A stretch of DNA of 64,000 bases from Minisyncoccia bacterium (lineage in GTDB: Bacteria > Patescibacteriota > Minisyncoccia > Phycocordibacterales > UBA5272). The DNA is taken from the NCBI GenBank assembly GCA_038326985.1, contig JBBQKQ010000001.1, forward strand, positions 5,943 through 69,942. The letters are read 5' to 3'. The translations under genes were made by a program, and so were the position numbers. This document shows positions 4,547-57,235 of this stretch, piece after piece (positions within the stretch are counted from its first letter, which is position 1; every line of letters starts with the position of its first letter). The notes under the pieces are model-generated. The model searched no databases, was not told the origin of the DNA, and worked only from the letters and a program-made list of their open reading frames with translations.

Positions 4547-5014
4547 ATGAAAATTCAAACTACAGAGGAAAATAAAATAAGAAGAAATTTTTTAATTAGT
4601 GTTTTTATTAAAGGAGCAATTTCTTTTGCAGAAATTGTAGCAGGATTAATTTTATTTTTTATTCCAATATCTTTTATTATCAACCCACTATTATCTTTTA
4701 GTTTTGTCTCACACTATTTACAAGGAATTATTAATGAACTTACTGCGGCAAGTGGAACATTTATTGCAATTTATTTATTATCACGAGGACTTATTAAGTT
4801 TTTATTAATAATTGCCCTTTTGAAAGATAAGCTTTGGGCATACCCAAGTTCATTAGCAGTGTTAGGATTATTTGTTTTGTATCAAATATATCAAATAATA
4901 ACAACTCATTCAATAGCTATAGTTTTAATAACCATTTTTGATTTGTTTGTTATGTGGAGTATTTGGAGAGAATATATTTTACTAAAAGATAAAAAAGTTT
5001 TTACCAGTTTGTAA
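4547..5014 (+). CDS. small multi-TM membrane protein (DUF2127-like)
   Basis: 155 aa, 4 predicted TM helices. The N-terminal pattern RRNFLISVFIKGAISFAEIVAGL resembles DUF2127 from memory. Unverified. Confidence 0.5.
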   Translation: MKIQTTEENKIRRNFLISVFIKGAISFAEIVAGLILFFIPISFIINPLLSFSFVSHYLQGIINELTAASGTFIAIYLLSRGLIKFLLIIALLKDKLWAYPSSLAVLGLFVLYQIYQIITTHSIAIVLITIFDLFVMWSIWREYILLKDKKVFTSL

Positions 5015-6725
5015 GACGAGCTAAGCCGAGAGCATATTCGAGCCACCAAGTTCCCGCAGAAGGACCTCCATTACAATTACCATCACTTTCACCAGGTGCT
5101 TTAATCCATAAATATGCATCTATTAATGAATCGCCAGTATTGGCAGATGGTTTATTCCCTAAAGATCTTCCACTTGGGTTACACCATTCACCATTTGAGC
5201 CATTCCCATTTCTAGAACTGTCAATTATGAAATGTTTATTTCCCACTCTAGCAGAAATATCTTTTCCATAAACTGTATTTTCATCAGAAGATTGGAAATT
5301 TGATACATTCAAACTAAACCCATCAGCACTTGCTATCCCCGCTTTTTGTAGTCTATCAGACATATCTACTGGTGCTATCCAATTTGCATGACCAGCATCC
5401 AAATAAACATATGCGTTACTTTGTTTTAAAGTTTTTACTGCATAATTTAGCATTGAAAATCTATCATTTTTCATGCTATCCGATAGACAATCTAGTTGAG
5501 AAAGTGAATCTGGCTCAAGAACAACTATTACTCCATTTACATTATCATTTTTAATATTTTGAGCAACCATATTTATCCAGGTTTTGTAAGAATCTACATT
5601 ATTAGATCCCCCACTTGAATAACTTCCACAATCGCGTGACGGAATATTATAAACAACAAATATTGGCATAGCTAAATCCGCCTTTGAGGCTTTCATTACT
5701 TTTTGAATATCTAAGGGTGTACTCCAACCGCCTAGCCAAGTCGCTACTGAGTTGGACGATATTTTTTTCATCAAATTTATGTCAGTAGTATTTGTCATCT
5801 GTGACACTGCTTTTGCAGCACTACTGCTAGGGTTCACATAAAACTTTTTACCAGAAAATATTCCAGAAGTATTAGAAGTATTATTTAATGTTGTTATAAT
5901 TGTAGGCTGAACAATATTTTTTACATAAATTGTCTTATCAATTTTTCCTACCGTATTTCCATTAAGATCTTTTGCTATAAAAGTGAGAATATATGGACCA
6001 TAAGGATTGGTACTTGTACCTCCTCTCCACTTCCAGCCAGACATATCTACTAGCGATTCTTTATGAGGGTAGTCTGTGGCATTGTCAAACATTTCCGAAA
6101 GATTACCATTATCTACCTGCCAGAACATTTTATATTCCGTAACATTTTTTCCATCCACAACTGCTTTAAAAGGTGAAGTCACGTCTAAAATTGCATTATT
6201 TGCAGGCCACCACACATTAATATTTAAATTTAACGGAGTAACGATGGCTGAAACAATAATTGGTTGCGCAACAATAACTGGTTGCGAAACTGCTATTGGT
6301 ATTGGTGTAGATGTAGGCGTATCTACATATATATTTACAGATTTTTCTGAGATGAAATCCCCATTATTATTTTTAGATTTAAAAGTTAGTTTGTAAGAAT
6401 TTGCCCCCTTCCAATTCCAACCCGAAAGGTCTACTGTGGATTCTTTATGAGGATAACCTTCGTATGAAGTTGGCATTACATTTAAAGTGCCCCCATCCAC
6501 TTGCCAAAACATTTGATAATCGTTTATTAAAGTATTTTGTAACATCCCTTTAAAAGGAATATTAGTTGAAGTGTTATTAAAATGAGCACCCTCAAACGGC
6601 CACCAGACTTCTGTGATAGGTACATCTGCTGCATATACAAAACTAAAAGTGTTAATCAACAATACACCTAAAATACTAAATGAAAATTTTACCCACTTAT
6701 TTATTCTGTTGCTAAATTTTGACAT
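5001..6725 (-). CDS. secreted glycoside hydrolase family 6 (cellulase) with two N-terminal copies of an uncharacterised beta-rich domain
   Basis: 574 aa with a signal peptide. Both GH6 signatures are present: FVVYNIPSRDCGSYSSGG and VIVVLEPDSLS. Also DAGHANW and WIKAPGESDG. Residues about 37-135 and 167-269 are tandem repeats (VWWP...Y(Q/K)MFWQVD.G.L...YPHKES.VD.SGW.W). Confidence 0.88.
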   Translation of the reverse strand: MSKFSNRINKWVKFSFSILGVLLINTFSFVYAADVPITEVWWPFEGAHFNNTSTNIPFKGMLQNTLINDYQMFWQVDGGTLNVMPTSYEGYPHKESTVDLSGWNWKGANSYKLTFKSKNNNGDFISEKSVNIYVDTPTSTPIPIAVSQPVIVAQPIIVSAIVTPLNLNINVWWPANNAILDVTSPFKAVVDGKNVTEYKMFWQVDNGNLSEMFDNATDYPHKESLVDMSGWKWRGGTSTNPYGPYILTFIAKDLNGNTVGKIDKTIYVKNIVQPTIITTLNNTSNTSGIFSGKKFYVNPSSSAAKAVSQMTNTTDINLMKKISSNSVATWLGGWSTPLDIQKVMKASKADLAMPIFVVYNIPSRDCGSYSSGGSNNVDSYKTWINMVAQNIKNDNVNGVIVVLEPDSLSQLDCLSDSMKNDRFSMLNYAVKTLKQSNAYVYLDAGHANWIAPVDMSDRLQKAGIASADGFSLNVSNFQSSDENTVYGKDISARVGNKHFIIDSSRNGNGSNGEWCNPSGRSLGNKPSANTGDSLIDAYLWIKAPGESDGNCNGGPSAGTWWLEYALGLARLTNW

Positions 6726-6766: not shown

Positions 6767-7366
6767 TTAGTCATTTATTAGCGTTGAGTAAACGACTAGT
6801 CGAGAATTTTTTGTGTTTTCACTTTGAACAAATTTGCCTTCACAAGTAATAAGGTTTAGATTTCTAGAGTGGCTTTCATCAAAAATTTTTTCTAAGGGAG
6901 CATTCTTATAGTTATAGACTTCAATGTTCATTACTTGAAAGTTTTTTATTTCGCCATCAATCGTTTTTACAACTATTCGATCGCCTATATTAAGACGGTG
7001 CAAATTCCTAAAAATTACTCCGAAACCGAATTGGTCAACTTCATGTCCGTCAATTACCGCGTTCCCAATTTCTCCTGGTTTTGGCCCATACTTGTACCAT
7101 CCAGTTTGCATTAAGTTTTTAGGCACATCCATATTACCTGATATTGTTTTACCAACAGGAATAACTTTGGCCTCTAAATTAATTTTTGGAATAGATATAC
7201 TGGTTGGTTCACCAACTATTTCAAAACTATTAGCTTCAATATCTATTTTTTTTTCAACATTATTTATCGGATTTTTGTAAAAATAGAATGATAAATTATT
7301 AATTTGAAAAAATAATACTGTCAGCAAAAGTGCACCACTAATACGTAAAAGAAAAGAATTCCACAT
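6767..7366 (-). CDS. sortase-family transpeptidase
   Basis: 199 aa with an N-terminal TM anchor. Contains His (AVIDGHEV), LITCEG (TLxTC-type Cys) and a downstream Arg (SRLVVYS). Confidence 0.85.
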   Translation of the reverse strand: MWNSFLLRISGALLLTVLFFQINNLSFYFYKNPINNVEKKIDIEANSFEIVGEPTSISIPKINLEAKVIPVGKTISGNMDVPKNLMQTGWYKYGPKPGEIGNAVIDGHEVDQFGFGVIFRNLHRLNIGDRIVVKTIDGEIKNFQVMNIEVYNYKNAPLEKIFDESHSRNLNLITCEGKFVQSENTKNSRLVVYSTLIND

Positions 7367-7369
7367 TTA

Positions 7370-8479
7370 TTAATTTATAGTTTCTCGATTTTTAGAATAA
7401 TTTTTATTTGTAAAGTAAATAATTTCTATCAATGACACGAAAAGGAAAAATAGAAAGTAGAAAGAATTTCTGTTATCACCTAAACCCGTATTGGGCATAT
7501 TTGGTAATGTGCTTGGAGAATTTTCTCCATTTAAATCTCCTGTCGTAGAAGCCCCTAAGACAGTTGGAACACTAGGAATATTTGAAACTGTGCTTCCACC
7601 ACCTAACTGCACAGGAACAATTACAGGTGTCACATTACCTACTCCGCCAAATGTCGGAATAACAATACTTCCTCCCCCACCTCCGCCTCCGCCACCAGCA
7701 CTTACAATAATAGTAGCTGGAATTGATGTTGTAGAAACAGAAGTTGTAGCTATTGTAGAAGTTGCTAAAGTAGAAGTTGCAATTGTTGAAGTAGCAATAG
7801 TACTAGTTGGTGTTGTGGTTGCAATTGAGGTTGAACTTATTTCTGAAACCTTAACAGCATCTAAATAAGTACCTAATGCATTTGGAACTCCTAAATCTGT
7901 GAATTCAAGCCTTGTTGTGCTTGCTGTAGCAATCACATCATAACTTTTTAATATCCACTCAATGTTTGTATGACTAATATTTGTTGAAGAAACTGTGTCT
8001 AAAGTTGAACTACTCCATTTTATACGTAAAACATTTTGTGTAGAATCTGGAGCATCAGGTCGAGCAGCAAATGCAAAACTAATAATATAATGTAGTCCGA
8101 GAACAGTGGGTAAGTCCTGCCAAATATTTATAGAAGCCGGATTTGATTGTGAAGGAAAATTTGGACCGAACCAATCTGAGTCAAGCTCTGCGTACTGATT
8201 ACCAGAGTAAGCCGTGTAGCCTAAGTGACCTGTTTTTTGAAGTTCCAAATTTGCAACTACTGGTCGAGTGGTTGGATTATAAGTATTTGCTCCACCAAAC
8301 CACTCTACATTCCAACCTAGTCCTGAAGTACCACTTGGGAATATATCCCATTTGTCTGCATGGGTAATGACTGGTGTTTCAAAATCATTATTCAATACCG
8401 GTATAGTAGTTGTTGCCGCAAAAGTACTAGTTGTCGCACATAAAAAGAAAACTGCAGAATTTATTATTTTATTTTTCAT
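7370..8479 (-). CDS. cell-surface protein with a C-terminal sortase sorting signal (MPNTG)
   Basis: 369 aa with a signal peptide. N-terminal beta-sandwich resembling DUF642/galactose-binding-like (NNDFETP...GWNVEW...GNQYAELDS...GTYLDAV). T/S/I-rich linker, then a Gly run encoded at about 7675-7701. LPNMPNTG is followed by a hydrophobic helix and a basic tail. Adjacent to the sortase. Confidence 0.7.
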   Translation of the reverse strand: MKNKIINSAVFFLCATTSTFAATTTIPVLNNDFETPVITHADKWDIFPSGTSGLGWNVEWFGGANTYNPTTRPVVANLELQKTGHLGYTAYSGNQYAELDSDWFGPNFPSQSNPASINIWQDLPTVLGLHYIISFAFAARPDAPDSTQNVLRIKWSSSTLDTVSSTNISHTNIEWILKSYDVIATASTTRLEFTDLGVPNALGTYLDAVKVSEISSTSIATTTPTSTIATSTIATSTLATSTIATTSVSTTSIPATIIVSAGGGGGGGGGSIVIPTFGGVGNVTPVIVPVQLGGGSTVSNIPSVPTVLGASTTGDLNGENSPSTLPNMPNTGLGDNRNSFYFLFFLFVSLIEIIYFTNKNYSKNRETIN

Positions 8480-8501
8480 AGTTTTTTACTCTTTTATAAT
8501 T

Positions 8502-11495
8502 TTAATTATTTATTAATTTATACTCTTTTAGAAGCATTCCTTCTGAGAAGGATTTTGTTTGCACTAGTTGATAATGTTCATCAAAATAATTCTCAATTTT
8601 AGATTGATACCCCTGGTCATAACTTAGGAGGAGCCACAAATGGCTGTGGCCAGATACAATTTTTCCAGCCTCCGTTGGCAATGTTTTTTCGTCAAACGGA
8701 GGAATGGGCCCTGCGACACTCCTGTCCCACAGGGGTAAAGTAGTTATGAGCGTATTTCCATGGTAGTAATAAAGAAACGGAAAAATTATAAATGGTGCAG
8801 ATAAAGTTATTACATCTTCTTCACTTGCATAACGCTCTATATATGCTGTAGCTTCTTTATAGTTTTCTTTAACTGGTGTTTGTGCATTATTAATTTCCAA
8901 TGAAAGCGTAAACAACATTACAGCAACTAATCCAAATCTTGCAAATCTTGCAACTACCGGCCTATAAGTAGAAAACATCCAGGATACTAAAATATAAAGT
9001 GATGGTGCAGTGAATATAAGATATCTACTTAAAAATACTGGTTTGTAAAAAATACTTATTGCAAATGATATTGCAACTGGTACAATAAAACTCAAGAGGA
9101 AATAAAATGTTTCAGGTGAACTTTTTTGTCTTTTTTGTAAGAACATAAAAACTAACAATACTATGATTGGCCAAAAAGAAACTAGAATGGTATTGGTATC
9201 AGGCGTTTGAAAACCAAATAAAAACTGTGAAAAAGTGTTAAAAAGGTCAACTGTCGTAGGCTGTATAAGTCCAGGTTGAGAGTTACTTGCACTTCCCAGG
9301 GACTTCACATAATAAATCCAAGGTAGAAACCCTAATGCAACTAACCCGCCAGAAATTATAAATTTTTTAAATGATCCCTCAGGAAATATTTTAGTGTTTA
9401 AAAAATAAAATATAACTTGTGTGATTATGAATAAGGAAAAAAAGTAATGTACATACATACCGATAATAGAAATTAACGTATACCCTATCCAGACTTTTTT
9501 ACTAGGATTTTTCCAAAGTGAAACAAATAGATATTGACTCAAAAGAACCAAAAAAACAAACATGGTGTACATTCGAATTTCACTTCCATACCAGTTCATA
9601 AAAGCCGAGGCCGCAAGTAATATTGATGCGTATATACCAACATTACTATTATAAGCGCGCTTACCAACAAAATAAATTAAAACTATTGAAGCTAGAAAAA
9701 AAATGAGTGAGAGGAGTCTTGCAACTTCGATACTATCACCTAGAAAATAGCGCCAAATGTATAAAGTAAAGTGGTAAAGTGGTACGTGCACATCTTGACC
9801 TATAAGGTTTAATATTTTGGCAGGTGAATGTGAAGTTTGCCAAAGACTTTGTGATTCATCCAGTCTTAAACTTTGTAAACTAAAAACAATTTTTGAAAGT
9901 AATGCTGCGAATATTAGCAATCCTGATATGATTACATTACTTTGAAAACTAGAAATAGTTTTAACTTTAGTTATCACTTTTTGAAGTTCTGTTTTTTTGG
10001 TTTGTGGCAATGCTGCATAAATAAAAGGTACGAATATTCCTATATTTAGAAGTGCCCATGCAGTATTAGTAAAAAATGAAGCTGTAAAACCTTCTCTAAA
10101 ATATGAATATCCTACTCCAACTATTACTAATACTATATAAGAAATTTGGGGTATTACTAGCTTTATAAAGTTACCTTCAACAGCTTTTTTAGAAGTAACT
10201 TCGAACTTTGATTTCTTATTTGTTAGTGCTGCCCATAAAGCCTTTATATGTATGTTAAAACCAGAGTTTGAAAAACATAGTGAAGAAAAGGTAAACGAAT
10301 AGTTTGTTGACTGCTCAAGCAATAATAAGGTTAGAAAGATATATGGTAAGAATACTGAAGCAAGAAGCATTGTTGAGGAAACTATGGGTACGGCACCAGT
10401 GAAAAAATAAATCAGTGGAATACAAGCATCTATTACAACTACTATGCCTGATAAAAAGAAACACACAGAAGACATATATTGTAAGCGTTGTTTAAACGTA
10501 AGTCCATGTGTTTTATTTTTTCTTGAAAAAATGCCCCGAAAAATAATATTATGTTTGAAAATAACGTCCAGTGCTCCCCGGGCCCATCTAAATTGTTGAT
10601 TAAAATAAGACAGGAAGTCTTCAGGTGCTAAACCTTCCGCTAAAACCTCTGGTACGTAAACCGATTTATATTTTCTTTCATGTAAAAGTATTCCTGTTAA
10701 TAAATCTTCGGCAATTGATGCTTCCCACATGCCCCCGACTTCGCTCAGTGCGAGCCTCGATAAAACCATATTTGTACCACACATAGTAGCACTGTTGTCA
10801 CGATTTTTACCTTTACAAATTGGACCAAAGAAAAGCTCTTGTTGTTCCCAAGCACTTTCAGTAATAATGTTTACATCAGAGTTTTTATAAAATTGAGGTG
10901 TTTGAACATATGCTACTTTTTCGTCTGCGAAATAAAGCATTGTTTTCTTTAAAAAGTCAGTATGAGGAACATGATCAGCATCAAAAATAGTAATATATGG
11001 TGCACTTGTTTTACTGATTGCATGATTTATATTACCTGCTTTTGCACCTCCGGGAATTGTACGAGTAATACTAGTAACGCCATGTTTTAAAGCAAGCTCG
11101 TCAATTTCTTGCCAATTATCTTTGGATGCAACTAACCCATCATTTAAAATAAATATTTTAAAATTTGGATAGTCCATTTTTTTTGCAGCTATTATTGTTT
11201 CTTCAACTATTTGGACTGGCTCCCCACATACTGTTATAAAGACATCTACAGGTTGAGAAAAATTTGGGTCTTTAATTTCTGGCATGTATTCCGTATTCCA
11301 AATAGTGTAAAGAAAGGTCATAAATTGAAAAACATGAAAAACTTCTCCAAATATTAATAAGTAAAATACTATAGAATTACTTACAACAAATGTAAAAGCA
11401 ATGATATAAAAATATATTAACGTAAGAAGTACAGCAGAAAGAATGAGGATTTTATTTACTTTAGTTTGTAAAAACTTTTCACGAGGGTTTTGCAT
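8502..11495 (-). CDS. fusion protein: processive GT2 beta-glycan (cellulose-synthase-like) synthase plus C-terminal GT-C (ArnT/PMT-like, COG1807-type) domain
   Basis: 997 aa. N-terminal half has BcsA/CesA-type motifs: DVFITVCGEP, ILNDG, ITIFDADHVP, VQTPQFY, AEDLLTG, QQFRWARG (QxxRW). No PilZ domain was seen. From about residue 545: LRLDESQSLW...VPLYHFTLYIWRYFLGDSIEVARLLSLIFF, a multi-TM region typical of GT-C enzymes that use lipid-linked sugars. Confidence 0.8.
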   Translation of the reverse strand: MQNPREKFLQTKVNKILILSAVLLTLIYFYIIAFTFVVSNSIVFYLLIFGEVFHVFQFMTFLYTIWNTEYMPEIKDPNFSQPVDVFITVCGEPVQIVEETIIAAKKMDYPNFKIFILNDGLVASKDNWQEIDELALKHGVTSITRTIPGGAKAGNINHAISKTSAPYITIFDADHVPHTDFLKKTMLYFADEKVAYVQTPQFYKNSDVNIITESAWEQQELFFGPICKGKNRDNSATMCGTNMVLSRLALSEVGGMWEASIAEDLLTGILLHERKYKSVYVPEVLAEGLAPEDFLSYFNQQFRWARGALDVIFKHNIIFRGIFSRKNKTHGLTFKQRLQYMSSVCFFLSGIVVVIDACIPLIYFFTGAVPIVSSTMLLASVFLPYIFLTLLLLEQSTNYSFTFSSLCFSNSGFNIHIKALWAALTNKKSKFEVTSKKAVEGNFIKLVIPQISYIVLVIVGVGYSYFREGFTASFFTNTAWALLNIGIFVPFIYAALPQTKKTELQKVITKVKTISSFQSNVIISGLLIFAALLSKIVFSLQSLRLDESQSLWQTSHSPAKILNLIGQDVHVPLYHFTLYIWRYFLGDSIEVARLLSLIFFLASIVLIYFVGKRAYNSNVGIYASILLAASAFMNWYGSEIRMYTMFVFLVLLSQYLFVSLWKNPSKKVWIGYTLISIIGMYVHYFFSLFIITQVIFYFLNTKIFPEGSFKKFIISGGLVALGFLPWIYYVKSLGSASNSQPGLIQPTTVDLFNTFSQFLFGFQTPDTNTILVSFWPIIVLLVFMFLQKRQKSSPETFYFLLSFIVPVAISFAISIFYKPVFLSRYLIFTAPSLYILVSWMFSTYRPVVARFARFGLVAVMLFTLSLEINNAQTPVKENYKEATAYIERYASEEDVITLSAPFIIFPFLYYYHGNTLITTLPLWDRSVAGPIPPFDEKTLPTEAGKIVSGHSHLWLLLSYDQGYQSKIENYFDEHYQLVQTKSFSEGMLLKEYKLINN

Positions 11496-11503
11496 AAAAT
11501 TTT

Positions 11504-12736
11504 TTACTTATTATATGGAATATAATTTTTTGCTAAATTTGGTAGTTGGCCATTATATAAAGAAATAGCAAACCAAGTCCAATTGTCATCATAATAACTT
11601 AGTTGGGTTTTCCAGTCGTTTATATCAATGTCATAAAGGTAAACTATTTTTTTGTCGTAAATTTCTTTAGCTGATGCTTTGTCCATTATCCAAAAATACC
11701 CAAATGAACCCGCATACATTGCTGGTGATTCTTTTTCGGAAACTATTCCACCGTTATGTAAATATACACTTGCTAATTTCTTTCTAGACTTCCATTCATT
11801 TCCTAAAAATCCCAATCTACTTAGATAGTTTTTTGCCCTTGGGTCACCAAACCACTCATAATCAAGCGCAATTCTAAATGGAACCCGCAATGCATCATAA
11901 GAATAATTTGTTGTATTAGTTGTATTTAAATCATTACTATTTGGTACAATCTCTCCAGAAGATTTACTAATAGTTAGCCAATCAGGTGGAAGAGATGCTG
12001 AAGATTCTTTATCAAGCTTATCCTCAGTTGATCGCAGTAAAAGCCCATAGGAGCTATCAACCAAATCATTCCAGTTGTGAGTAGGGTCAACTTTAGCAAA
12101 TATTTTGTAAGCGTAAGGAGAAAAATAAGAAACATTTATTACATAATTTTCTTTGGCTAAATATTCTATGTCGTCTGCCGCAAGATATGGAACATTTTTA
12201 ATTTGAACAACATCATATTTCCACATGTCATTTAATATATTTTTTGCTTGTTCTAAATACCTTGGGTCTCCCCATCTTTCACTTGCAAATATAAGCGCAA
12301 GTGCAATATCACTATCAGCATCACTTGCAGTATTTTGGCCACCTCTTTCTGTTATTATTCCATAAGTACCATCAATTTTTTTTCCATAAAGCCACGAGAA
12401 AAGATTGTCATTTTCCCTTTTTAAATTCTGATTTGCCCATGTAAGAGTTTTTTCAAAAGTTACCTTATCATCTGAATATACTGCACGCAAAAGTGAATAA
12501 CTTATACCCTCTGAAGTTGTAATATCTCCAGATTGTCTATCAAGTGTTCTTCCACTCTCAACTTCTATGTAGTTCTTTTTATAATTATTCCAAATAAAAG
12601 AAAGCGCATCTTTGGGTGCAAATAGTCTCGTTTGATCAGGATATTTACTATTTAAAAACAATGCATAAACCGCTACTAAGAATGCTAAGGTGATGAATAT
12701 CACTCCAAGATTTTCTCTAGAAATATCTTTTATCAT
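11504..12736 (-). CDS. glycoside hydrolase family 8 (BcsZ-like endoglucanase), membrane-anchored
   Basis: 410 aa. Perfect GH8 signature ASDADSDIALALIFASERW. TSEGISYSLL catalytic-Glu region. N-terminal TM helix. Confidence 0.9.
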   Translation of the reverse strand: MIKDISRENLGVIFITLAFLVAVYALFLNSKYPDQTRLFAPKDALSFIWNNYKKNYIEVESGRTLDRQSGDITTSEGISYSLLRAVYSDDKVTFEKTLTWANQNLKRENDNLFSWLYGKKIDGTYGIITERGGQNTASDADSDIALALIFASERWGDPRYLEQAKNILNDMWKYDVVQIKNVPYLAADDIEYLAKENYVINVSYFSPYAYKIFAKVDPTHNWNDLVDSSYGLLLRSTEDKLDKESSASLPPDWLTISKSSGEIVPNSNDLNTTNTTNYSYDALRVPFRIALDYEWFGDPRAKNYLSRLGFLGNEWKSRKKLASVYLHNGGIVSEKESPAMYAGSFGYFWIMDKASAKEIYDKKIVYLYDIDINDWKTQLSYYDDNWTWFAISLYNGQLPNLAKNYIPYNK

Positions 12737-12744
12737 AAATTTGA

Positions 12745-13827
12745 TTAGTCTAGTGTGTAAGGAATTGTGTTTTCTCCTTCAATACTATTCATAAAGTTTC
12801 TAGATCGTCCTCTACTTAAAACTTTAATCTGTTTTAGAGCCGGGGCTACAACAAAACCACCTACAAAATCTATTCCTAGTGACACTAAAATAATTCCAAG
12901 GGTTAACATTTCTCCAAACTGGTTTTTGGAAAATTGCTGTCTTGCATATACCTCACTCACACCGTCTGCATATACTGTACCTCCAAATATTTCACTAGGA
13001 AATATAGCACCAGTTGCTACAAAAGTAATTCCTCCAAAAATTATTAAGTTTAAAAGTACAGGTGTAACAACTGAAGGTTTTTTGATGATGTCATATTTTC
13101 CGAGTAATTTTCTAAAAGTTATAATTGCTAAATCTTTTAGAGAATCCACATATGAGAATAAACTTACAGTTGACCCTACAGGATTATTAAAAACAACAGG
13201 AAGTTCTTTAATTTGGTAATTATTTTTTCTTGCAATTACCAATGCTTCGATATCAAAAGCAAATCTAAAAATAGTTGTTTTTGAGAATACCGCCTCAGCA
13301 GCTCTTTTAGTAAAAAGTTTAAATCCACGTTGGGTATCTTTAATTCCAGGTGTTGCCAAAAGCTCTACAGGTTTTTTAGAAAGTTTACCTAAAAAATTTC
13401 TTAAAAAACCGTTGTTTTCTTTCTTCACTGATCCCTCTTCCAATAGTTCAATTGAGCCAATTACCACGTCACTTTTGCCAGTTCCATTTCCACAATTTTC
13501 TAAAAATTTATCCAAGTGAGAAATATCCACAGAATTATCTGCATCCATAAAAAGTCTGTATTCACCCACCGCTTCAAGCATTCCAGTTTTTACAGCATAT
13601 CCTTTTCCTTGATTTTTTTGATAACTAACCAATTTCAAATTATCAACTTTTCTCTTATACTCACTAATAACTTCAGATAAATTATCTGGAGATCCATCAT
13701 TAACAACAATTATTTCATAAGTATAACTCTTATTTTTAAAGTAATTATTAAGAGAAACCAGCGTAGACCCAATCCTCTTAGACTCCTTATAAGCTGGTAT
13801 AATTACCGATACAAAAATTTTATTCAT
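12745..13827 (-). CDS. GT2 polyprenyl-phosphate hexosyltransferase (GtrB / dolichyl-phosphate glucosyltransferase-like)
   Basis: 360 aa. VIIPAYKES, VVNDGSPD, FMDADNS (DxD), then C-terminal TM helices. Confidence 0.85.
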   Translation of the reverse strand: MNKIFVSVIIPAYKESKRIGSTLVSLNNYFKNKSYTYEIIVVNDGSPDNLSEVISEYKRKVDNLKLVSYQKNQGKGYAVKTGMLEAVGEYRLFMDADNSVDISHLDKFLENCGNGTGKSDVVIGSIELLEEGSVKKENNGFLRNFLGKLSKKPVELLATPGIKDTQRGFKLFTKRAAEAVFSKTTIFRFAFDIEALVIARKNNYQIKELPVVFNNPVGSTVSLFSYVDSLKDLAIITFRKLLGKYDIIKKPSVVTPVLLNLIIFGGITFVATGAIFPSEIFGGTVYADGVSEVYARQQFSKNQFGEMLTLGIILVSLGIDFVGGFVVAPALKQIKVLSRGRSRNFMNSIEGENTIPYTLD

Positions 13828-13857
13828 AAGTTCTAAGACGTACGAAAAACGAAAAAA

Positions 13858-14286
13858 TTACTTGAAAACTATGTATTTGTAGCCAATGTAGTTCCAAATC
13901 ATCACAGTTAGGGTACCTATAACAGCTGAAATATTGCCCACTATTTGGTTTTGTTGAGGTAGCAAATTTATCAGAATTCCGAAGGCAAAAGTCGATATAA
14001 GAACGTTAATTAAAAACCCTACCCCACTCACACCAAAGAATAATATTTTTTGTTTGGAGCTTTTCTCTGGCTGATCGGTTTTTTTCTCCTCAAACACCCA
14101 ATATTTGTTCAAAAAGTAGCTATTTATTACCGCAGCTATAAATGATAAAGCTTTAAAAGCTGTAAAATACATATTATTCTCACCAGTTCCAAACAAATAA
14201 ATCAACACATTTAAAACTGCCAAATCTACGGCAGTATTGATTCCCCCAACAAATACGAATTTGATTATTTGTTTTAACATAAACAA
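13858..14286 (-). CDS. GtrA-family membrane protein (lipid-linked sugar translocation)
   Basis: 142 aa, 4 TM helices. N-terminal IKFVFVGGINTAVDLAVLNVL and C-terminal WNYIGYKYIVF are typical of GtrA. Confidence 0.85.
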   Translation of the reverse strand: MFMLKQIIKFVFVGGINTAVDLAVLNVLIYLFGTGENNMYFTAFKALSFIAAVINSYFLNKYWVFEEKKTDQPEKSSKQKILFFGVSGVGFLINVLISTFAFGILINLLPQQNQIVGNISAVIGTLTVMIWNYIGYKYIVFK

Positions 14287-14400
14287 TTTTCTTTTTTTTA
14301 TTATACATCATTAATTATAAAATGAAAATATTTTTTTAATAAAAACTCATTTTAAAACAAATTTACAACTTTAGAGATTTGTGGTAAAATGTTTCGACAT

Positions 14401-14472
14401 GGTGGCTATGGTGTAGTGGTAGCACTAGGGTTTGTGGAACCCTCAGTTCGGGATCGATACCCGATAGTCACC
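14401..14472 (+). tRNA. tRNA-His (GUG), with encoded G-1
   Basis: Folds as a cloverleaf. G-1 plus GUGGCUA pairs with UAGUCAC plus C73. Anticodon stem AGGGU/ACCCU, loop UUGUGGA. T arm UCGGG-AUCGAUA-CCCGA. CCA is not encoded. Confidence 0.9.
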
Positions 14473-14507
14473 CAAATAGGTTGCTTTTTTAATATTTATA
14501 TTTTATT

Positions 14508-14768: not shown

Positions 14769-15212
14769 TCACAAAACAATAAGATGAATAACAATTATTG
14801 TAAGTGGAAGGGAAATAATAAATAGTGCAAATAATAAATAATCTACTTTGTTGGCTTTTTTACTTCTATTATTGAAATTAAATAGTCTGTTTCTCATACT
14901 TAGAAAGAGAGAAAGGAGCTGAGAAATACCAAGTATCCCCACAAAAAATTGTCCATAGGAAAATATACTACCTTGTAAATCAAAGACTGACGTAGGTATA
15001 TTAAAAATATATTGAAAAGCAGAGACTATAAACCAATAACAAGAAGATATATAATCTAATAAGGATAGATATCTACCCCCAGAGTGTTCATTAGAAAATA
15101 AATACGGTCCAAGAAATAGAGCGAGAAAAATCCAAAAGAAATAATTTTTACTAAGTGAAATAACTTTTTCTTTTACTTTTTTCATATTTATTAATCTACA
15201 GTTTAACGACAT
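14769..15212 (-). CDS. small multi-TM membrane protein, paralogue 1 (unknown function)
   Basis: 147 aa. KEKVISLSKNYFFWIFLALFLGPYL matches the neighbour's KEKVIAISKNIFFWIFLTLFLGPYL. The likely true start is MKKVKEK, near 15185. Confidence 0.55.
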   Translation of the reverse strand: MSLNCRLINMKKVKEKVISLSKNYFFWIFLALFLGPYLFSNEHSGGRYLSLLDYISSCYWFIVSAFQYIFNIPTSVFDLQGSIFSYGQFFVGILGISQLLSLFLSMRNRLFNFNNRSKKANKVDYLLFALFIISLPLTIIVIHLIVL

Positions 15213-15227
15213 ATGGATCTTGGAGAT

Positions 15228-15653
15228 TTATGAGGTTATGAGAATTATAAGTACAACAAACAAAGCAAATGGTAATGAAATAAAAAATAATAAAAGCAAT
15301 AAGAAATCAGTCATTGTCCTTATTCTTGTTTCATTAATTGCTAGTTTTTTTATAAAAATGAACAGACTGAGTAATTGTGATATACCCAATAACCCTACAA
15401 AAATTAATTCGGTAGAAAAAAAATTATAGCTATAGTTAAAAACTGTTTGAGGAATATTGAAATAATTTTCAATTGGAATAAATACAAACCAATAACAAGC
15501 TAAAATATAATCTTTGAATGATAAAATCTTCTCACTGTGGTGAATTTGTGACATGAAGTGGGACCCCAAATACGGTCCAAGAAATAGAGTGAGAAAAATC
15601 CAAAAGAAAATATTTTTACTAATTGCAATAACTTTTTCTTTTATACTTTTCAT
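15228..15653 (-). CDS. small multi-TM membrane protein, paralogue 2 (unknown function)
   Basis: 141 aa, collinear similarity to 14769..15212 throughout. Confidence 0.55.
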   Translation of the reverse strand: MKSIKEKVIAISKNIFFWIFLTLFLGPYLGSHFMSQIHHSEKILSFKDYILACYWFVFIPIENYFNIPQTVFNYSYNFFSTELIFVGLLGISQLLSLFIFIKKLAINETRIRTMTDFLLLLLFFISLPFALFVVLIILITS

Positions 15654-29239: not shown

Positions 29240-30484
29240 TTACCGATGAGAGTTAATATACCCTCTTGTAGACAAACCAAACATTCCTGTTCCAGATTGG
29301 AGACCTAAAGGAGTTAAAATCTCACCTCTATGAGCTTCTTGAAAAGATTTAAGAGCTGCTTTAGTTTTTGGACCAAAAAGACTTGTTTCAGTTCCTTTAG
29401 AACCTAGTCCACTTGAGGAAACAGTGTAGCCATGGTTATTAAGATATTGTTGGAGTCGAAGCACGTCAGCACCACTACTTCCAAGAGTGAGAGAGACATC
29501 GAATGCTTGAGCAACATTAATTTGAGCTTGGATTGTTTGTGTATTTTGAACAGAAGAAGTAACTATTGTTGGTGATTGTGTAGAAGTATTGATACCACTA
29601 GCGCTTCCAGAAGTAGTATAGGTTGTTTGATTTTGTGTAGGAGTTTGTATGGTTGTTTGTGATGGAGTTTGCGCTGGAGCCGGTGTTACTATTTGTGTAG
29701 GGGTTGGATTTAATATTACAGATGGTTGAGTAAAATTTCCAGTACTCATAACTGCATTTGCATCCAATGTTACAGCAGTCTGTGCTAAAGCTCTACCATT
29801 AAGCGTTGCGCCTGTTTGTAAATTAATTGCAGTTTGAGTTAACAGGTTGCCATTAAACTGTGCCGTTGTTCCAATGTTTGCATTGCTTCCAACTTGCCAA
29901 AATATATTTTTTGCTTGTGCACCTCCAGTAAGAATTACTTTCTTGCCACTCGCTACATTTAATCCTTGAGCTATTTGAAAAATCCAAACATCATTTGGAC
30001 CACCTGAAAGGGTAACATCCGAATTTATTGCAACGCCTGTACCCCATTTATACAGTCCAGGAGCAATCGTTAGCCCACTAATATCTCCTGCCCCAAGTTC
30101 AGTTGCAGTTGGCAAGGTTCTACCTGCAGCATCAGTGTACGCAGTTTGCATATCCCCTACTGCAGAAGTAAGATTAGAAGAAGTAGGATCTGCATAGTTC
30201 GCTGCGTAAATTTTTCCAGTAACAACAGGAGAAGTAGAAAATACATTTGTAGCATCAGCCGAAAGTCCAAATCCAGTTATGTAGGTTGCAGCAACTGGAC
30301 TCACTCCAATGTCACCTGTAATCTGCGTCACTCCTGTGGTTGAGATTCCTGTTTTTGACAAGATTACAAAGTTTCCTGCAGTTCCAAGATTTACTGCTGC
30401 TGGTCCCGCAGCAAATGCGTTGGCCCCGCTCATTGCAACAACGAGAACCAATAATAGATAAGACAATTTATTTTTATTTTTCAT
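29240..30484 (-). CDS. secreted DUF3494 (ice-binding-like beta-solenoid) protein with a C-terminal peptidoglycan-binding (PG_binding_1) domain
   Basis: 414 aa with a signal peptide. VNLGTAGNFVILSKTGISTTGVTQITGDIGVSP is typical of DUF3494. T/Q/P-rich linker. C-terminus: GADVLRLQQYLNNHGY...GPKTKAALKSFQ. Confidence 0.8.
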   Translation of the reverse strand: MKNKNKLSYLLLVLVVAMSGANAFAAGPAAVNLGTAGNFVILSKTGISTTGVTQITGDIGVSPVAATYITGFGLSADATNVFSTSPVVTGKIYAANYADPTSSNLTSAVGDMQTAYTDAAGRTLPTATELGAGDISGLTIAPGLYKWGTGVAINSDVTLSGGPNDVWIFQIAQGLNVASGKKVILTGGAQAKNIFWQVGSNANIGTTAQFNGNLLTQTAINLQTGATLNGRALAQTAVTLDANAVMSTGNFTQPSVILNPTPTQIVTPAPAQTPSQTTIQTPTQNQTTYTTSGSASGINTSTQSPTIVTSSVQNTQTIQAQINVAQAFDVSLTLGSSGADVLRLQQYLNNHGYTVSSSGLGSKGTETSLFGPKTKAALKSFQEAHRGEILTPLGLQSGTGMFGLSTRGYINSHR

Positions 30485-55480: not shown

Positions 55481-57235
55481 CTATCTGTTCACAAAGACGT
55501 CAATTGATTTCTGGTTAATCATATTTCCCATATTATCTTTTGCAACAAAATTTATTGTATAATTTTTACTTGATTTCCAATTCCACCCTGGAAGATCTAC
55601 GATTGCTTCTTTGTGTGGATAATCTACTGACGAATCGTAAAGCTTATTTAAAACATCACCATCTACTTGCCAAAACATTTGGTATTGGCTTAATTCTGTA
55701 TTTTGCAAAATTGCTTTCCACGGTTGCACACCGCTGAGATTGATATTTTGAGTTGGCCACCAAACCTCAATTAATTTTTGAGATTGAGAGGATTGAACAG
55801 GATTTGTGCTGGAGGCAGTAGTAGTGGTTGAATCGTTTACTTGGATAACAAGTAAAGAGTCAATCCAAAAATAATTTTGTGTCCAGTCAGATTTAAAAAT
55901 TCCTACTTTCAGAGTGTATTTTCCTGAAGCTGTGGGAGTCCAGCTTTCTAAAAATTTTAAACTAGAGTTTGTAGTTAAAGTTTGTCCTTCTTTAAATTTT
56001 TGGAAAACTTTTTGATTACTTTCATTGTATATTTCAATATCTACAATCACATTTTGTAAGGTGGTGCTTCCATTTCTAATTGTTATATAAATAGAAGTAG
56101 GAGAGTTTTTTGTTGGCATAGCTGGACTTAAAACTCCACTCGCAGAGATTGCAGAAGTTGGACCTGGAGTTACAAAATTTCCTGTGTACCAATTTTTTAT
56201 TACAGTTTCTGCTGACTTGTTTTGAGGAGAGTAGTCAATATTTCCCGGACCTCCATAGTTGGGATCGCTGTTCCAATCCCATAGAAATATTCCACTTAAA
56301 TAAGGATAGTTATTACAATATTCGAAAAATGCCTGGTAGTCTGTTTTCTGCTCTAATTCATCATAAGCACCCGATGGTTCTGCTGGGTTTAAATGGGCAC
56401 CTGCGCTACTTCTATAACCAATTTCTGAAAAGAATATTTTCTTACCAGTTCTTTGTTGTAATAATTGAATGTCATTTTTGTTTATAATATCCCATGATTG
56501 CTTTAATTGTTCTACGTTGTTATTTGAATTTGACTGAAGTGGCCAATAAGCTGAAATACTTATTAAATCTAGTTTGTCCCAGAATTCTATATGATCCTTT
56601 TCATCACCCCAAGTATCATAGTTACCCCAGTTTGCACCATAAGTAATTTTTCCAGTGTAGCGTTTACGAACTTCGTCAATAAGCCTGTTCCAATTGGTAG
56701 TGTTAGTACTGTTTACACTTGGGGTTGTTAGGCTGATTAGCTCTGTTCCTAACACATATAGTTCGACATTATTGGATTTGGCTATATCGGCATATTTGTT
56801 AAGTATATTTCCATAATTAGCAAACCAAAGGTCCCTGTTGGACGGATTTATATTTGCCCTCCACTCCCAAGTAGTAGATTCAACATGAGGTTTTAACATC
56901 ACTTTCATGCCTTGATCATGTATAAATTTGATTGCGCTTGTAAGTGCTATATCTGTTGGAGTGTTGTAGCCCGCAGAAATTTCTGTAGAGTTTAAGTTTG
57001 TTTGATAAATTGGTATTGCCAGCCCTACACTGTTAGCCCCTATGTTTTTTAAATTTAGTACTGACTGTTTAAAAGAGTCACTCCCAAAGTCTGTTTCTGA
57101 TCGAGATTGAATATCAGCACCTTTAAATTCCTAATCACTCGGTGCTGCAGATGTGTGAAAAGTTGAAATGACAGACAAAGAAATTATTAACATTCCGTTT
57201 AATGCCTTTTTGGATAATATTTTTAATTTAAACAT
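55481..57235 (-). pseudogene. secreted (beta/alpha)8 glycoside hydrolase (clan GH-A-like) with a C-terminal Ig-like domain and a WWP/FWQVDG domain, interrupted by one in-frame TAG
   Basis: The track ORF 55481..56908 starts mid-domain. The same frame is open upstream to the ATG at 57235 (MFKLKILSKKALNGMLIISLSVISTFHTSAAPSD*EFKGADIQ...), except for the TAG at 57133..57131 (codon 35). Candidate catalytic Glu residues lie in VLGTELISL and FFSEIGYRS. The C-terminal 95 aa are homologous to the GH6 N-terminal repeats. Confidence 0.6.

Follow-up and report, generated by a model that had tools for sequence, protein, structure and literature searches.

A cellulose-synthase-type protein fused to a GT-C-type glycosyltransferase points to a candidate GH8-CelS-GT-C surface-glucan module in Patescibacteria

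The partners that are known to assist bacterial cellulose-type synthases are BcsB, BcsG, acetyltransferases and GlxA. The present analysis concerns a 64,000-nucleotide stretch of DNA from a Minisyncoccia bacterium (Patescibacteriota; GenBank assembly GCA_038326985.1, contig JBBQKQ010000001.1, positions 5,943 to 69,942 of the forward strand; the whole stretch is termed 'the window' below, and its coordinates are counted from its first letter), in which a single gene encodes a 997-residue protein whose amino-terminal half is a cellulose-synthase-type enzyme (here called CelS) and whose carboxy-terminal half is, in its predicted structure, a membrane glycosyltransferase of the GT-C fold. An initial interpretation made from the letters of the window (the 'sequence-only reading') had pointed to this fusion as one not known to have been characterized, and a literature search likewise found no paper describing a CelS-GT-C pairing. 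A GT-C enzyme acting as a near-obligate, and sometimes fused, partner of a synthase would be new.

Among the described systems, the bacterial cellulose synthases that are encoded with BcsA and BcsZ resemble this locus in the motifs of their processive family 2 glycosyltransferase (GT2) domain (D, DxD, (T)ED, QxxRW and FxVTxK), in a channel that superimposes on that of BcsA, and in the co-encoding of a family 8 glycoside hydrolase (GH8). They differ from it in that the window's CelS lacks PilZ, has only two transmembrane (TM) helices before its glycosyltransferase domain, is accompanied by neither BcsB nor BcsC, and has a GT-C partner, a type of enzyme that is not among the known subunits in a 2021 review of Bcs systems (PMC8892547). 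The closest precedent is found in E. coli, where BcsA forms complexes with BcsG, a lipid-donor-dependent phosphoethanolamine transferase that modifies nascent cellulose (PDB 9fmv and 9fmz; PMC8892547). There, an outward-facing membrane transferase with a lipid-derived donor acts on an emerging chain, although BcsG displays an alkaline-phosphatase fold and draws on phosphatidylethanolamine, whereas the window's partner is a GT-C protein that presumably draws on a polyprenyl-phosphate (Pol-P) sugar.

The three-component Gtr systems are similar in a different respect, as they too combine the genes of a GtrA protein, a membrane-bound GT2 enzyme (in the window only putatively of the DPMS/GtrB type) and a GT-C protein. 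The acceptors in those systems are O-antigens, teichoic acids and rhamnans that are built on lipid carriers (PMC8035078, PMC11127046), whereas the window's GT-C is fused to a synthase-dependent polymerase, and family scans of the operon found no Wzx/Wzy, ABC-transporter or teichoic-acid genes. Streptomyces, likewise a monoderm, has in its CslA-GlxA-CslZ system a cellulose-synthase-like enzyme that lacks PilZ and is encoded beside a GH6 (compare CslZ; PMC9040799). That system differs in having no GH8 and in its obligate partner, the copper radical oxidase GlxA, in place of which the window has a GT-C and a GH8. No match to a GlxA-type family was found among the operon proteins in Pfam and NCBIfam scans.

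The nearest named family for the GT-C half itself is NF052499, named simply 'mannosyltransferase', which we take to be the family of M. tuberculosis Rv1635c (MT1671/Rv1635c), whose members mannosylate a polysaccharide from a polyprenyl-phosphate donor. These mycobacterial enzymes glycosylate a polysaccharide outside the membrane, as is proposed here for the GT-C half, and differ in genomic context and probably in donor sugar; the scores of the window's protein and its relatives lie far below the cut-off of that model.

The 997-residue protein and its two halves

The features of the fused protein are given below, with motif conservation taken from two alignments: A1, comprising 29 fused full-length proteins, and A2, comprising 21 GT-C sequences (the window's half and 20 stand-alone homologues).

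8502 to 11495, minus strand: synthase and GT-C fusion, 997 residues (GT2 families at residues 83-390; PMT_2, PF13231, E 1.1e-10, at residues 570-729)
9996 to 11495, minus strand: CelS, the synthase half, residues 1-500 (TIGR03030, BcsA 4hg6, Foldseek)
10584 to 10598, minus strand: QQFRW motif of the processive GT2, residues 300-304 (Q300, Q301, R303 and W304 invariant in A1)
9966 to 9995, minus strand: part of the Lys-rich linker between the halves (the linker as a whole being residues 498-514, PQTKKTELQKVITKVKT)
8505 to 9965, minus strand: GT-C half, residues 511-997 (PMT_2 PF13231; AlphaFold2 and Foldseek)
9855 to 9860, minus strand: acidic pair D546-E547 (within SLRLDESQSLW) of the GT-C half, located in its extracytoplasmic loop 1 and invariant in the alignments

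In the synthase half, two amino-terminal TM helices precede a GT-A domain and interface helices, after which come a further four TM helices; the half harbors the complete set of motifs expected of a processive enzyme: LNDG (D119), D172-A-D174, E263-D264, Q300-Q-F-R-W304 and a gating loop, F431-E-V-T-S-K436, of the form FxVTxK. The catalytic motifs are invariant across A1 with the exception of D119, which is retained in at least 90% of those proteins, and F431 and T434 of the gating loop are likewise invariant. Residues 9-498 align to residues 60-575 of Rhodobacter sphaeroides BcsA (4hg6; phmmer E 2.9e-46), and an alignment to E. coli BcsA is also obtained; the match to the CelA model TIGR03030 (E 2.2e-77) is well under that model's cut-off, and the score against NF008558 is also far below. 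An AlphaFold2 model of the whole protein (pLDDT 86.5, pTM 0.82) was best matched by Foldseek to BcsA structures (9b8v and 4p00; E 5e-23 to 6e-22 over 514-564 columns), followed by plant CesA and by hyaluronan synthases. Family scans with Pfam and NCBIfam found no PilZ or BcsB match in the fusion protein or in the operon, and the alignment to BcsA ends before PilZ, in agreement with the processive, PilZ-less synthase that the sequence-only reading had described. CelS is a processive synthase of the BcsA/CesA type without PilZ, and is not BcsA proper; a canonical PilZ-regulated Bcs system was considered and rejected, since neither PilZ nor BcsB is present.

As the Foldseek matches of the whole-protein model fell on the amino-terminal half only, the carboxy-terminal half was modeled separately (pLDDT 79.9, pTM 0.81). 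That model comprises approximately 12 TM helices followed by a carboxy-terminal alpha/beta domain of approximately 120 residues that is predicted to lie outside the membrane, and it was matched, with a probability of 1.00 in each case, to ArnT (TMq 0.57-0.61; 0.61 for 5f15), STT3, ALG9, AftD, PglB and Pmt4. By sequence, no match was found for this half in the PDB, either as a single sequence or as the A2 profile, and fold comparison alone succeeded. Scanned alone, residues 511-997 match PMT_2 (PF13231) at E 9.6e-12, above the gathering score. The half is thus of the GT-C fold in its predicted structure, as the sequence-only reading had supposed. The acidic pair D546-E547 follows directly upon the first TM helix of this half and is invariant in A1 and A2 alike, as are many further polar and aromatic residues; an acidic DE motif in loop 1 is a hallmark of PMT enzymes.

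The two halves are joined by 17 residues, five of them Lys or Arg, within which model confidence falls below a pLDDT of 50 at residues 506-508. The Lys-rich composition and low model confidence of this linker indicate that it is probably cytoplasmic, and given that location, and the even number of TM helices after which CelS ends, the DE loop would be expected to face outward, as in known GT-C enzymes.

The CelS-GT-C pair across genomes

A survey of such fusions and their neighborhoods, of the kind that the sequence-only reading had called for, was conducted on 80 loci from GTDB species genomes, drawn with an alignment of the GT-C half and annotated with the window's proteins; 74 of these loci have enough upstream DNA for the synthase to be scored, GH8 was scored in 69, and 50 are well flanked. 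The GT-C was found to be directly preceded by, or fused to, CelS in 72 of the 74, the usual form being two separate genes of which the synthase comes first and the GT-C follows at once, in many cases overlapping as ATGA, and GH8 lies upstream of CelS in 67 of the 69. The fused form was encountered in just one of the 80 species. The functional coupling of synthase and GT-C that had been proposed from the fusion is thereby strongly supported, through adjacency, overlap or fusion at nearly every locus and through recurrence of the fusion itself; the fusion as such is the uncommon form of a widespread pair that is otherwise encoded by two genes. Its chief value is that of a 'Rosetta stone' for a widespread and uncharacterized GH8-CelS-GT-C module.

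Additional members of the module are present less regularly. A GH6 gene is found near the core in 33 of the 50 well-flanked loci, in 30 of which it is convergent and just downstream, and a GtrA-type domain is found in 31 of the 50, at a median distance of 459 base pairs, mostly as part of a GT2-GtrA_DPMS_TM fusion (confirmed with Pfam for L016 and L060). The sequence-only reading had tied a GtrA/GtrB arm to the synthase-GT-C pair, and that arm is indeed often linked to the core; it is not universal, and one fused homologue is found by itself.

Fused relatives of the window's protein were recovered at full length from several sources (P0002 to P0012, 40-63% identity). The nearest, P0002 (63%), was found in Logan/ENA, and another, P0003 (60%), belongs to a metagenome-assembled genome of Candidatus Paceibacterota and is present in both NCBI and Logan, on four contigs, one of which is in 10 samples; a remote set of fused proteins (28-30% identity) derives from Actinomycetota and Gaiellaceae. 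Separate CelS-like proteins of approximately 550 residues share 45-57% identity with the synthase half, and hundreds of stand-alone GT-C homologues of approximately 500 residues share about 50% with the other, being named 'mannosyltransferase' or 'GT39' in their sources. In a search of 1.84 billion representatives of 50%-identity clusters, the only end-to-end matches among those listed were P0003, P0004 and P0007 (and, nearly so, P0081), and the best 150 matches contained about ten more distant fused clusters, as against about fifty of stand-alone GT-C proteins.

The split relatives also suggest how the fused architecture may arise. In L009, L010 and L016, the stop codon of the synthase overlaps the start codon of the GT-C as ATGA, at the same position as the window's junction, and the loss of one stop codon would therefore produce the fusion. 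A neighbour-joining tree built from CelS domains (calculated without support values) puts the fused forms at four or more distinct positions among the split forms, which suggests repeated independent fusion of CelS with GT-C. A single ancient fusion was rejected on the strength of that scattering, which is suggestive only, given the type of tree.

Members of the CelS family are elsewhere fused to a GtrA domain (P0013), to GH8 (P0102 and others), to GH26 (P0097 and P0099) and to a protein kinase (P0098), as seen among the homologues P0013, P0097 to P0099 and P0102 to P0118; accessory functions have evidently been fused to this synthase repeatedly.

The carriers of the module include the Adler-, Nomura-, Kaiser-, Taylor- and Wildermuthbacteria of the Paceibacterota, as well as Saccharibacteria, Doudnabacteria and the cultured actinobacterial genera Geodermatophilus and Klenkia. 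The nearest relatives of the window's protein likewise point to the Paceibacterota. Six loci from the latter two (L073, L074, L077, L078, L079 and L086) contain the full set of GtrA, GT2, GH8, CelS, GT-C and convergent GH6 genes, which makes the module testable in cultured Geodermatophilaceae. Since the GT-C proteins of that family share 38-41% identity with the window's half, close to the values for many Patescibacteria, there is a hint of horizontal transfer between Actinomycetota and Patescibacteria. The remote fused proteins of Actinomycetota (1047-1179 residues; L006, 8001-11144, and L007, 8001-11540) are adjoined by as many as three consecutive GH26 genes and by GT4 genes in place of GH8 and GH6, which suggests a related machine with a different backbone, possibly mannan.

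One locus, L059 of Candidatus Microsaccharimonas sossegonensis (8316-9956), has a CelS gene that is broken into three consecutive open reading frames of 131, 209 and 255 residues beside intact GH8 and GT-C genes, which reflects either a pseudogene or sequencing frameshifts.

Operon layout and companion proteins

The fusion gene lies in a block of seven co-directional minus-strand open reading frames that runs from 14286 down to 5001 with intergenic gaps of 3-41 nucleotides. The sequence-only reading had spoken of five tightly spaced genes and listed four of them (GtrA, GT2, GH8 and the fusion); these four are present on the minus strand at exactly the coordinates given, and the block proves to extend further, with genes for a sortase-anchored protein, for a sortase and for a GH6 enzyme. 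The remaining features of the block are as follows.

14300 to 14328, minus strand: promoter-like site (TTTTCA, 17 nucleotides, TATAAT) shortly before the start of GtrA, a consensus match only
13858 to 14286, minus strand: GtrA-family small membrane protein, 142 residues, putative Pol-P-sugar flippase (PF04138, E 1.5e-22, residues 9-141)
12745 to 13827, minus strand: GT2, 360 residues, putative Pol-P-glucose synthase of the DPMS/GtrB/ALG5 type (PF00535, E 3e-25)
11504 to 12736, minus strand: GH8 BcsZ-like endoglucanase, 410 residues, with an amino-terminal membrane anchor (PF01270, E 1.6e-39)
7370 to 8479, minus strand: secreted protein, 369 residues, choice-of-anchor C / DUF642-like beta-sandwich (weak matches to TIGR04362 and PF04862)
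6767 to 7366, minus strand: class F sortase, 199 residues (PF04203, E 2.5e-22; NF033748, E 1.2e-34)
5001 to 6725, minus strand: secreted GH6 glucanase, 574 residues, with two repeated amino-terminal domains (PF01341, E 3e-63)
4834 to 4847, minus strand: terminator-like hairpin after GH6, the sole one on this strand between 4400 and 15000, a consensus match only

The block is bounded upstream by a tRNA-His gene on the opposite strand (14402-14473). Scans for promoters and terminators found neither kind of site to be enriched relative to shuffled sequence, and the two sites above serve as landmarks only.

The family assignments that had been made from the letters for GtrA, for the GT2 (putatively GtrB-like) and for GH8 held up. 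The GH8 protein contains the PROSITE signature of its family (ASDADSDIALALIFASERW) in full, has a TM helix at residues 10-28, and matches the BcsZ model NF008305 at E 1e-35, below the cut-off of that model. The GT2 protein comprises a GT-A domain (residues 1-240) followed by two carboxy-terminal TM helices (253-271 and 310-328), and its best solved relative is the DPMS of Pyrococcus furiosus (5mlz, E 6e-13), with GtrB (5ekp) a weaker match at E 1e-6. Close homologues of this protein, including the product of a gene that adjoins the fused homologue P0003, are named 'dolichyl-phosphate beta-glucosyltransferase' by NCBI and JGI, which suggests that the enzyme makes Pol-P-glucose.

The 369-residue protein matches two models without reaching the cut-off of either, TIGR04362 (E 3.4e-11) and PF04862 (E 8.9e-4), and includes a Gly run and a Ser/Thr-rich linker in which those two residues make up a fraction of 0.67 of a 30-residue window. 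It terminates in a sorting signal in which LPNMPNTG precedes a hydrophobic helix and then a basic tail, and may be a surface-anchored, lectin-like glycan-binding protein. A gene pair of the same kind, again with a class F sortase, follows the GT-C in a locus from Kaiserbacteria (L058, 11486-13525).

Possible functions of the GT-C half, and other genes of the window

The account to which roughly half of our confidence attaches is that a synthase-coupled GT-C draws on a polyprenyl-phosphate sugar (probably glucose) to modify an emerging glucan. The core of such a surface beta-glucan machine would be GH8-CelS-GT-C, in which CelS would use a UDP-sugar to polymerize a beta-linked (probably beta-1,4-linked) glucan and would extrude it through its own membrane channel. 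The GT-C, normally a separate and translationally coupled partner, is here fused through the 17-residue and presumably cytoplasmic linker, an arrangement that would place its DE active site on the outer face beside the channel exit. The 360-residue GT2 would make the polyprenyl-phosphate sugar (probably Pol-P-glucose), GtrA would flip it to the outer face, and the GT-C would then transfer the sugar to the emerging glucan, as side branches or as a terminal modification. The membrane-anchored GH8 and the secreted GH6 might trim or release the polymer, and in this organism the sortase-anchored, lectin-like protein may hold it at the surface.

Within this scheme, we infer the polymer type, the donor sugar and the role of the nascent glucan as acceptor. 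A beta-1,4-glucan is the probable product, and is proposed because the neighboring GH8 and GH6 enzymes belong to families of beta-1,4-glucanases (PMC9040799).

Several points weigh against this account. The 360-residue GT2 reaches no NCBIfam cut-off, and Pol-P-glucose is named as the donor only because of how homologues of that protein are annotated. All 21 GT-C sequences scanned match NF052499, which speaks for a lipid-linked donor, but they do so weakly, and the window's half scores 34.7 bits where the cut-off is 900. No GtrA or GT2 gene is found nearby in 19 of the 50 well-flanked loci, and the fused homologue P0007 stands alone. Distant fused relatives adjoin genes of the mannanase families GH26 and GH113, so that the backbone may vary within the family. 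Finally, protein O-mannosyltransferases are among the enzymes of the PMT_2 type, and the adjoining gene encodes a secreted protein rich in Ser and Thr.

Of the alternatives, the one that fares best, while still unlikely, is that the GT-C anchors or ligates, transferring lipid-linked glucose, a gluco-oligosaccharide or a chain end to an acceptor in the envelope (lipid, peptidoglycan or protein); Pol-P-glucose would then prime or terminate the chain, and the glucan would be tethered to a cell without an outer membrane. For cellulose synthesis in Agrobacterium and in plants, both lipid-linked intermediates and priming with the help of cellulase were once proposed (PMC8892547), the en-bloc transferases STT3, PglB and AglB are among the top Foldseek matches to the GT-C, these organisms lack BcsB and BcsC, neither of which the cluster encodes, and the window's operon carries a sortase and a surface protein. 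Against these observations, synthases of the BcsA type elongate their product in the cytoplasm and, in the systems solved so far, require no lipid primer, flippases of the GtrA family typically serve Pol-P donors that carry a single sugar, and the single-sugar transferases ArnT, ALG9 and Pmt4 match the GT-C about equally well.

Somewhat less probable is a role as a PMT-like protein O-glycosyltransferase that would move a hexose from Pol-P to the Ser/Thr-rich linkers of the GH6 and sortase-anchored proteins, its link to the synthase being organizational only. The match to PMT_2, the annotation of relatives as GT39 or mannosyltransferase and the presence of the loop-1 DE hallmark are all in keeping with such an enzyme, as are the composition of the 369-residue neighbor's linker and the presence, in 11 of 51 associated GH6 proteins, of segments with a Ser plus Thr fraction of at least 0.5. 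This explanation is disfavored because the near-invariant partner of the GT-C is CelS rather than a secreted protein (72 of 74 loci, as compared to 33 of 50 for GH6 and one of 50 for the sortase substrate); in addition, the associated GH8 proteins are not Ser/Thr-rich, and there is no evident reason for a general protein glycosyltransferase to fuse repeatedly with a polysaccharide synthase.

It is improbable that the GT-C is mainly structural, serving with little or no transferase activity as a substitute for BcsB that stabilizes the channel or guides the chain. BcsA requires BcsB, and CslA requires GlxA (bioRxiv 10.1101/2023.11.20.567928; PMC8892547), the cluster encodes no BcsB, and the absence of nearby lipid-sugar genes from one fused homologue and from 19 well-flanked loci would be expected of such a protein; the role is nevertheless disfavored because the DE pair is invariant, together with the many polar and aromatic residues conserved in the 29 fused and 21 GT-C sequences, and the GT2/GtrA arm is strongly enriched beside the core. 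Finally, although the adjacent genes of most relatives overlap by four nucleotides and could be joined by a single-base error, we give almost no credence to an assembly or frameshift artefact, a danger that the sequence-only reading had itself raised, as the same architecture is found at full length in P0002, P0003 and other clades from independent assemblies, and the junction is a proper 17-residue linker with no slip of frame.

The preferred account, of a GT-C that modifies the emerging glucan, would join synthase-dependent secretion with lipid-carrier-dependent glycosylation outside the membrane, which are usually taught as separate pathways, in a module that is spread across Patescibacteria, whose surface chemistry is scarcely known. 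A broader proposal, which we regard as possible but on balance doubtful, is that GH8-CelS-GT-C represents a distinct and unrecognized class of synthase-dependent glycan machine, in which an outward-facing, Pol-P-glucose-dependent GT-C step (branching or covalent tethering) is obligatory in making the principal glucan on the surface of Patescibacteria and Geodermatophilaceae. If that were true, the polymer could be central to envelope building or to host attachment by these ultra-small episymbionts.

Several other genes of the window were noted. Beyond the tRNA-His gene, two tandem paralogous small membrane proteins of 147 and 141 residues (14769-15212 and 15228-15653, both on the minus strand) share similar amino-terminal regions (KEKVISLSKNYFFWIFLALFLGPYL and KEKVIAISKNIFFWIFLTLFLGPYL, respectively), and neither matches a Pfam or NCBIfam family. 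A 475-residue protein (55481-56908, minus strand) combines a domain of the beta-mannanase family GH113 (E 6e-41) with a Wzt_C-like carbohydrate-binding domain, and in another genome a GH113 gene (L003, 10990-12927) is likewise the first to follow the gene of a fused CelS-GT-C homologue. Lastly, in a 414-residue protein (29240-30484, minus strand), an ice-binding-like domain (PF11999, E 2.6e-77) precedes one of the peptidoglycan-binding family PG_binding_1.

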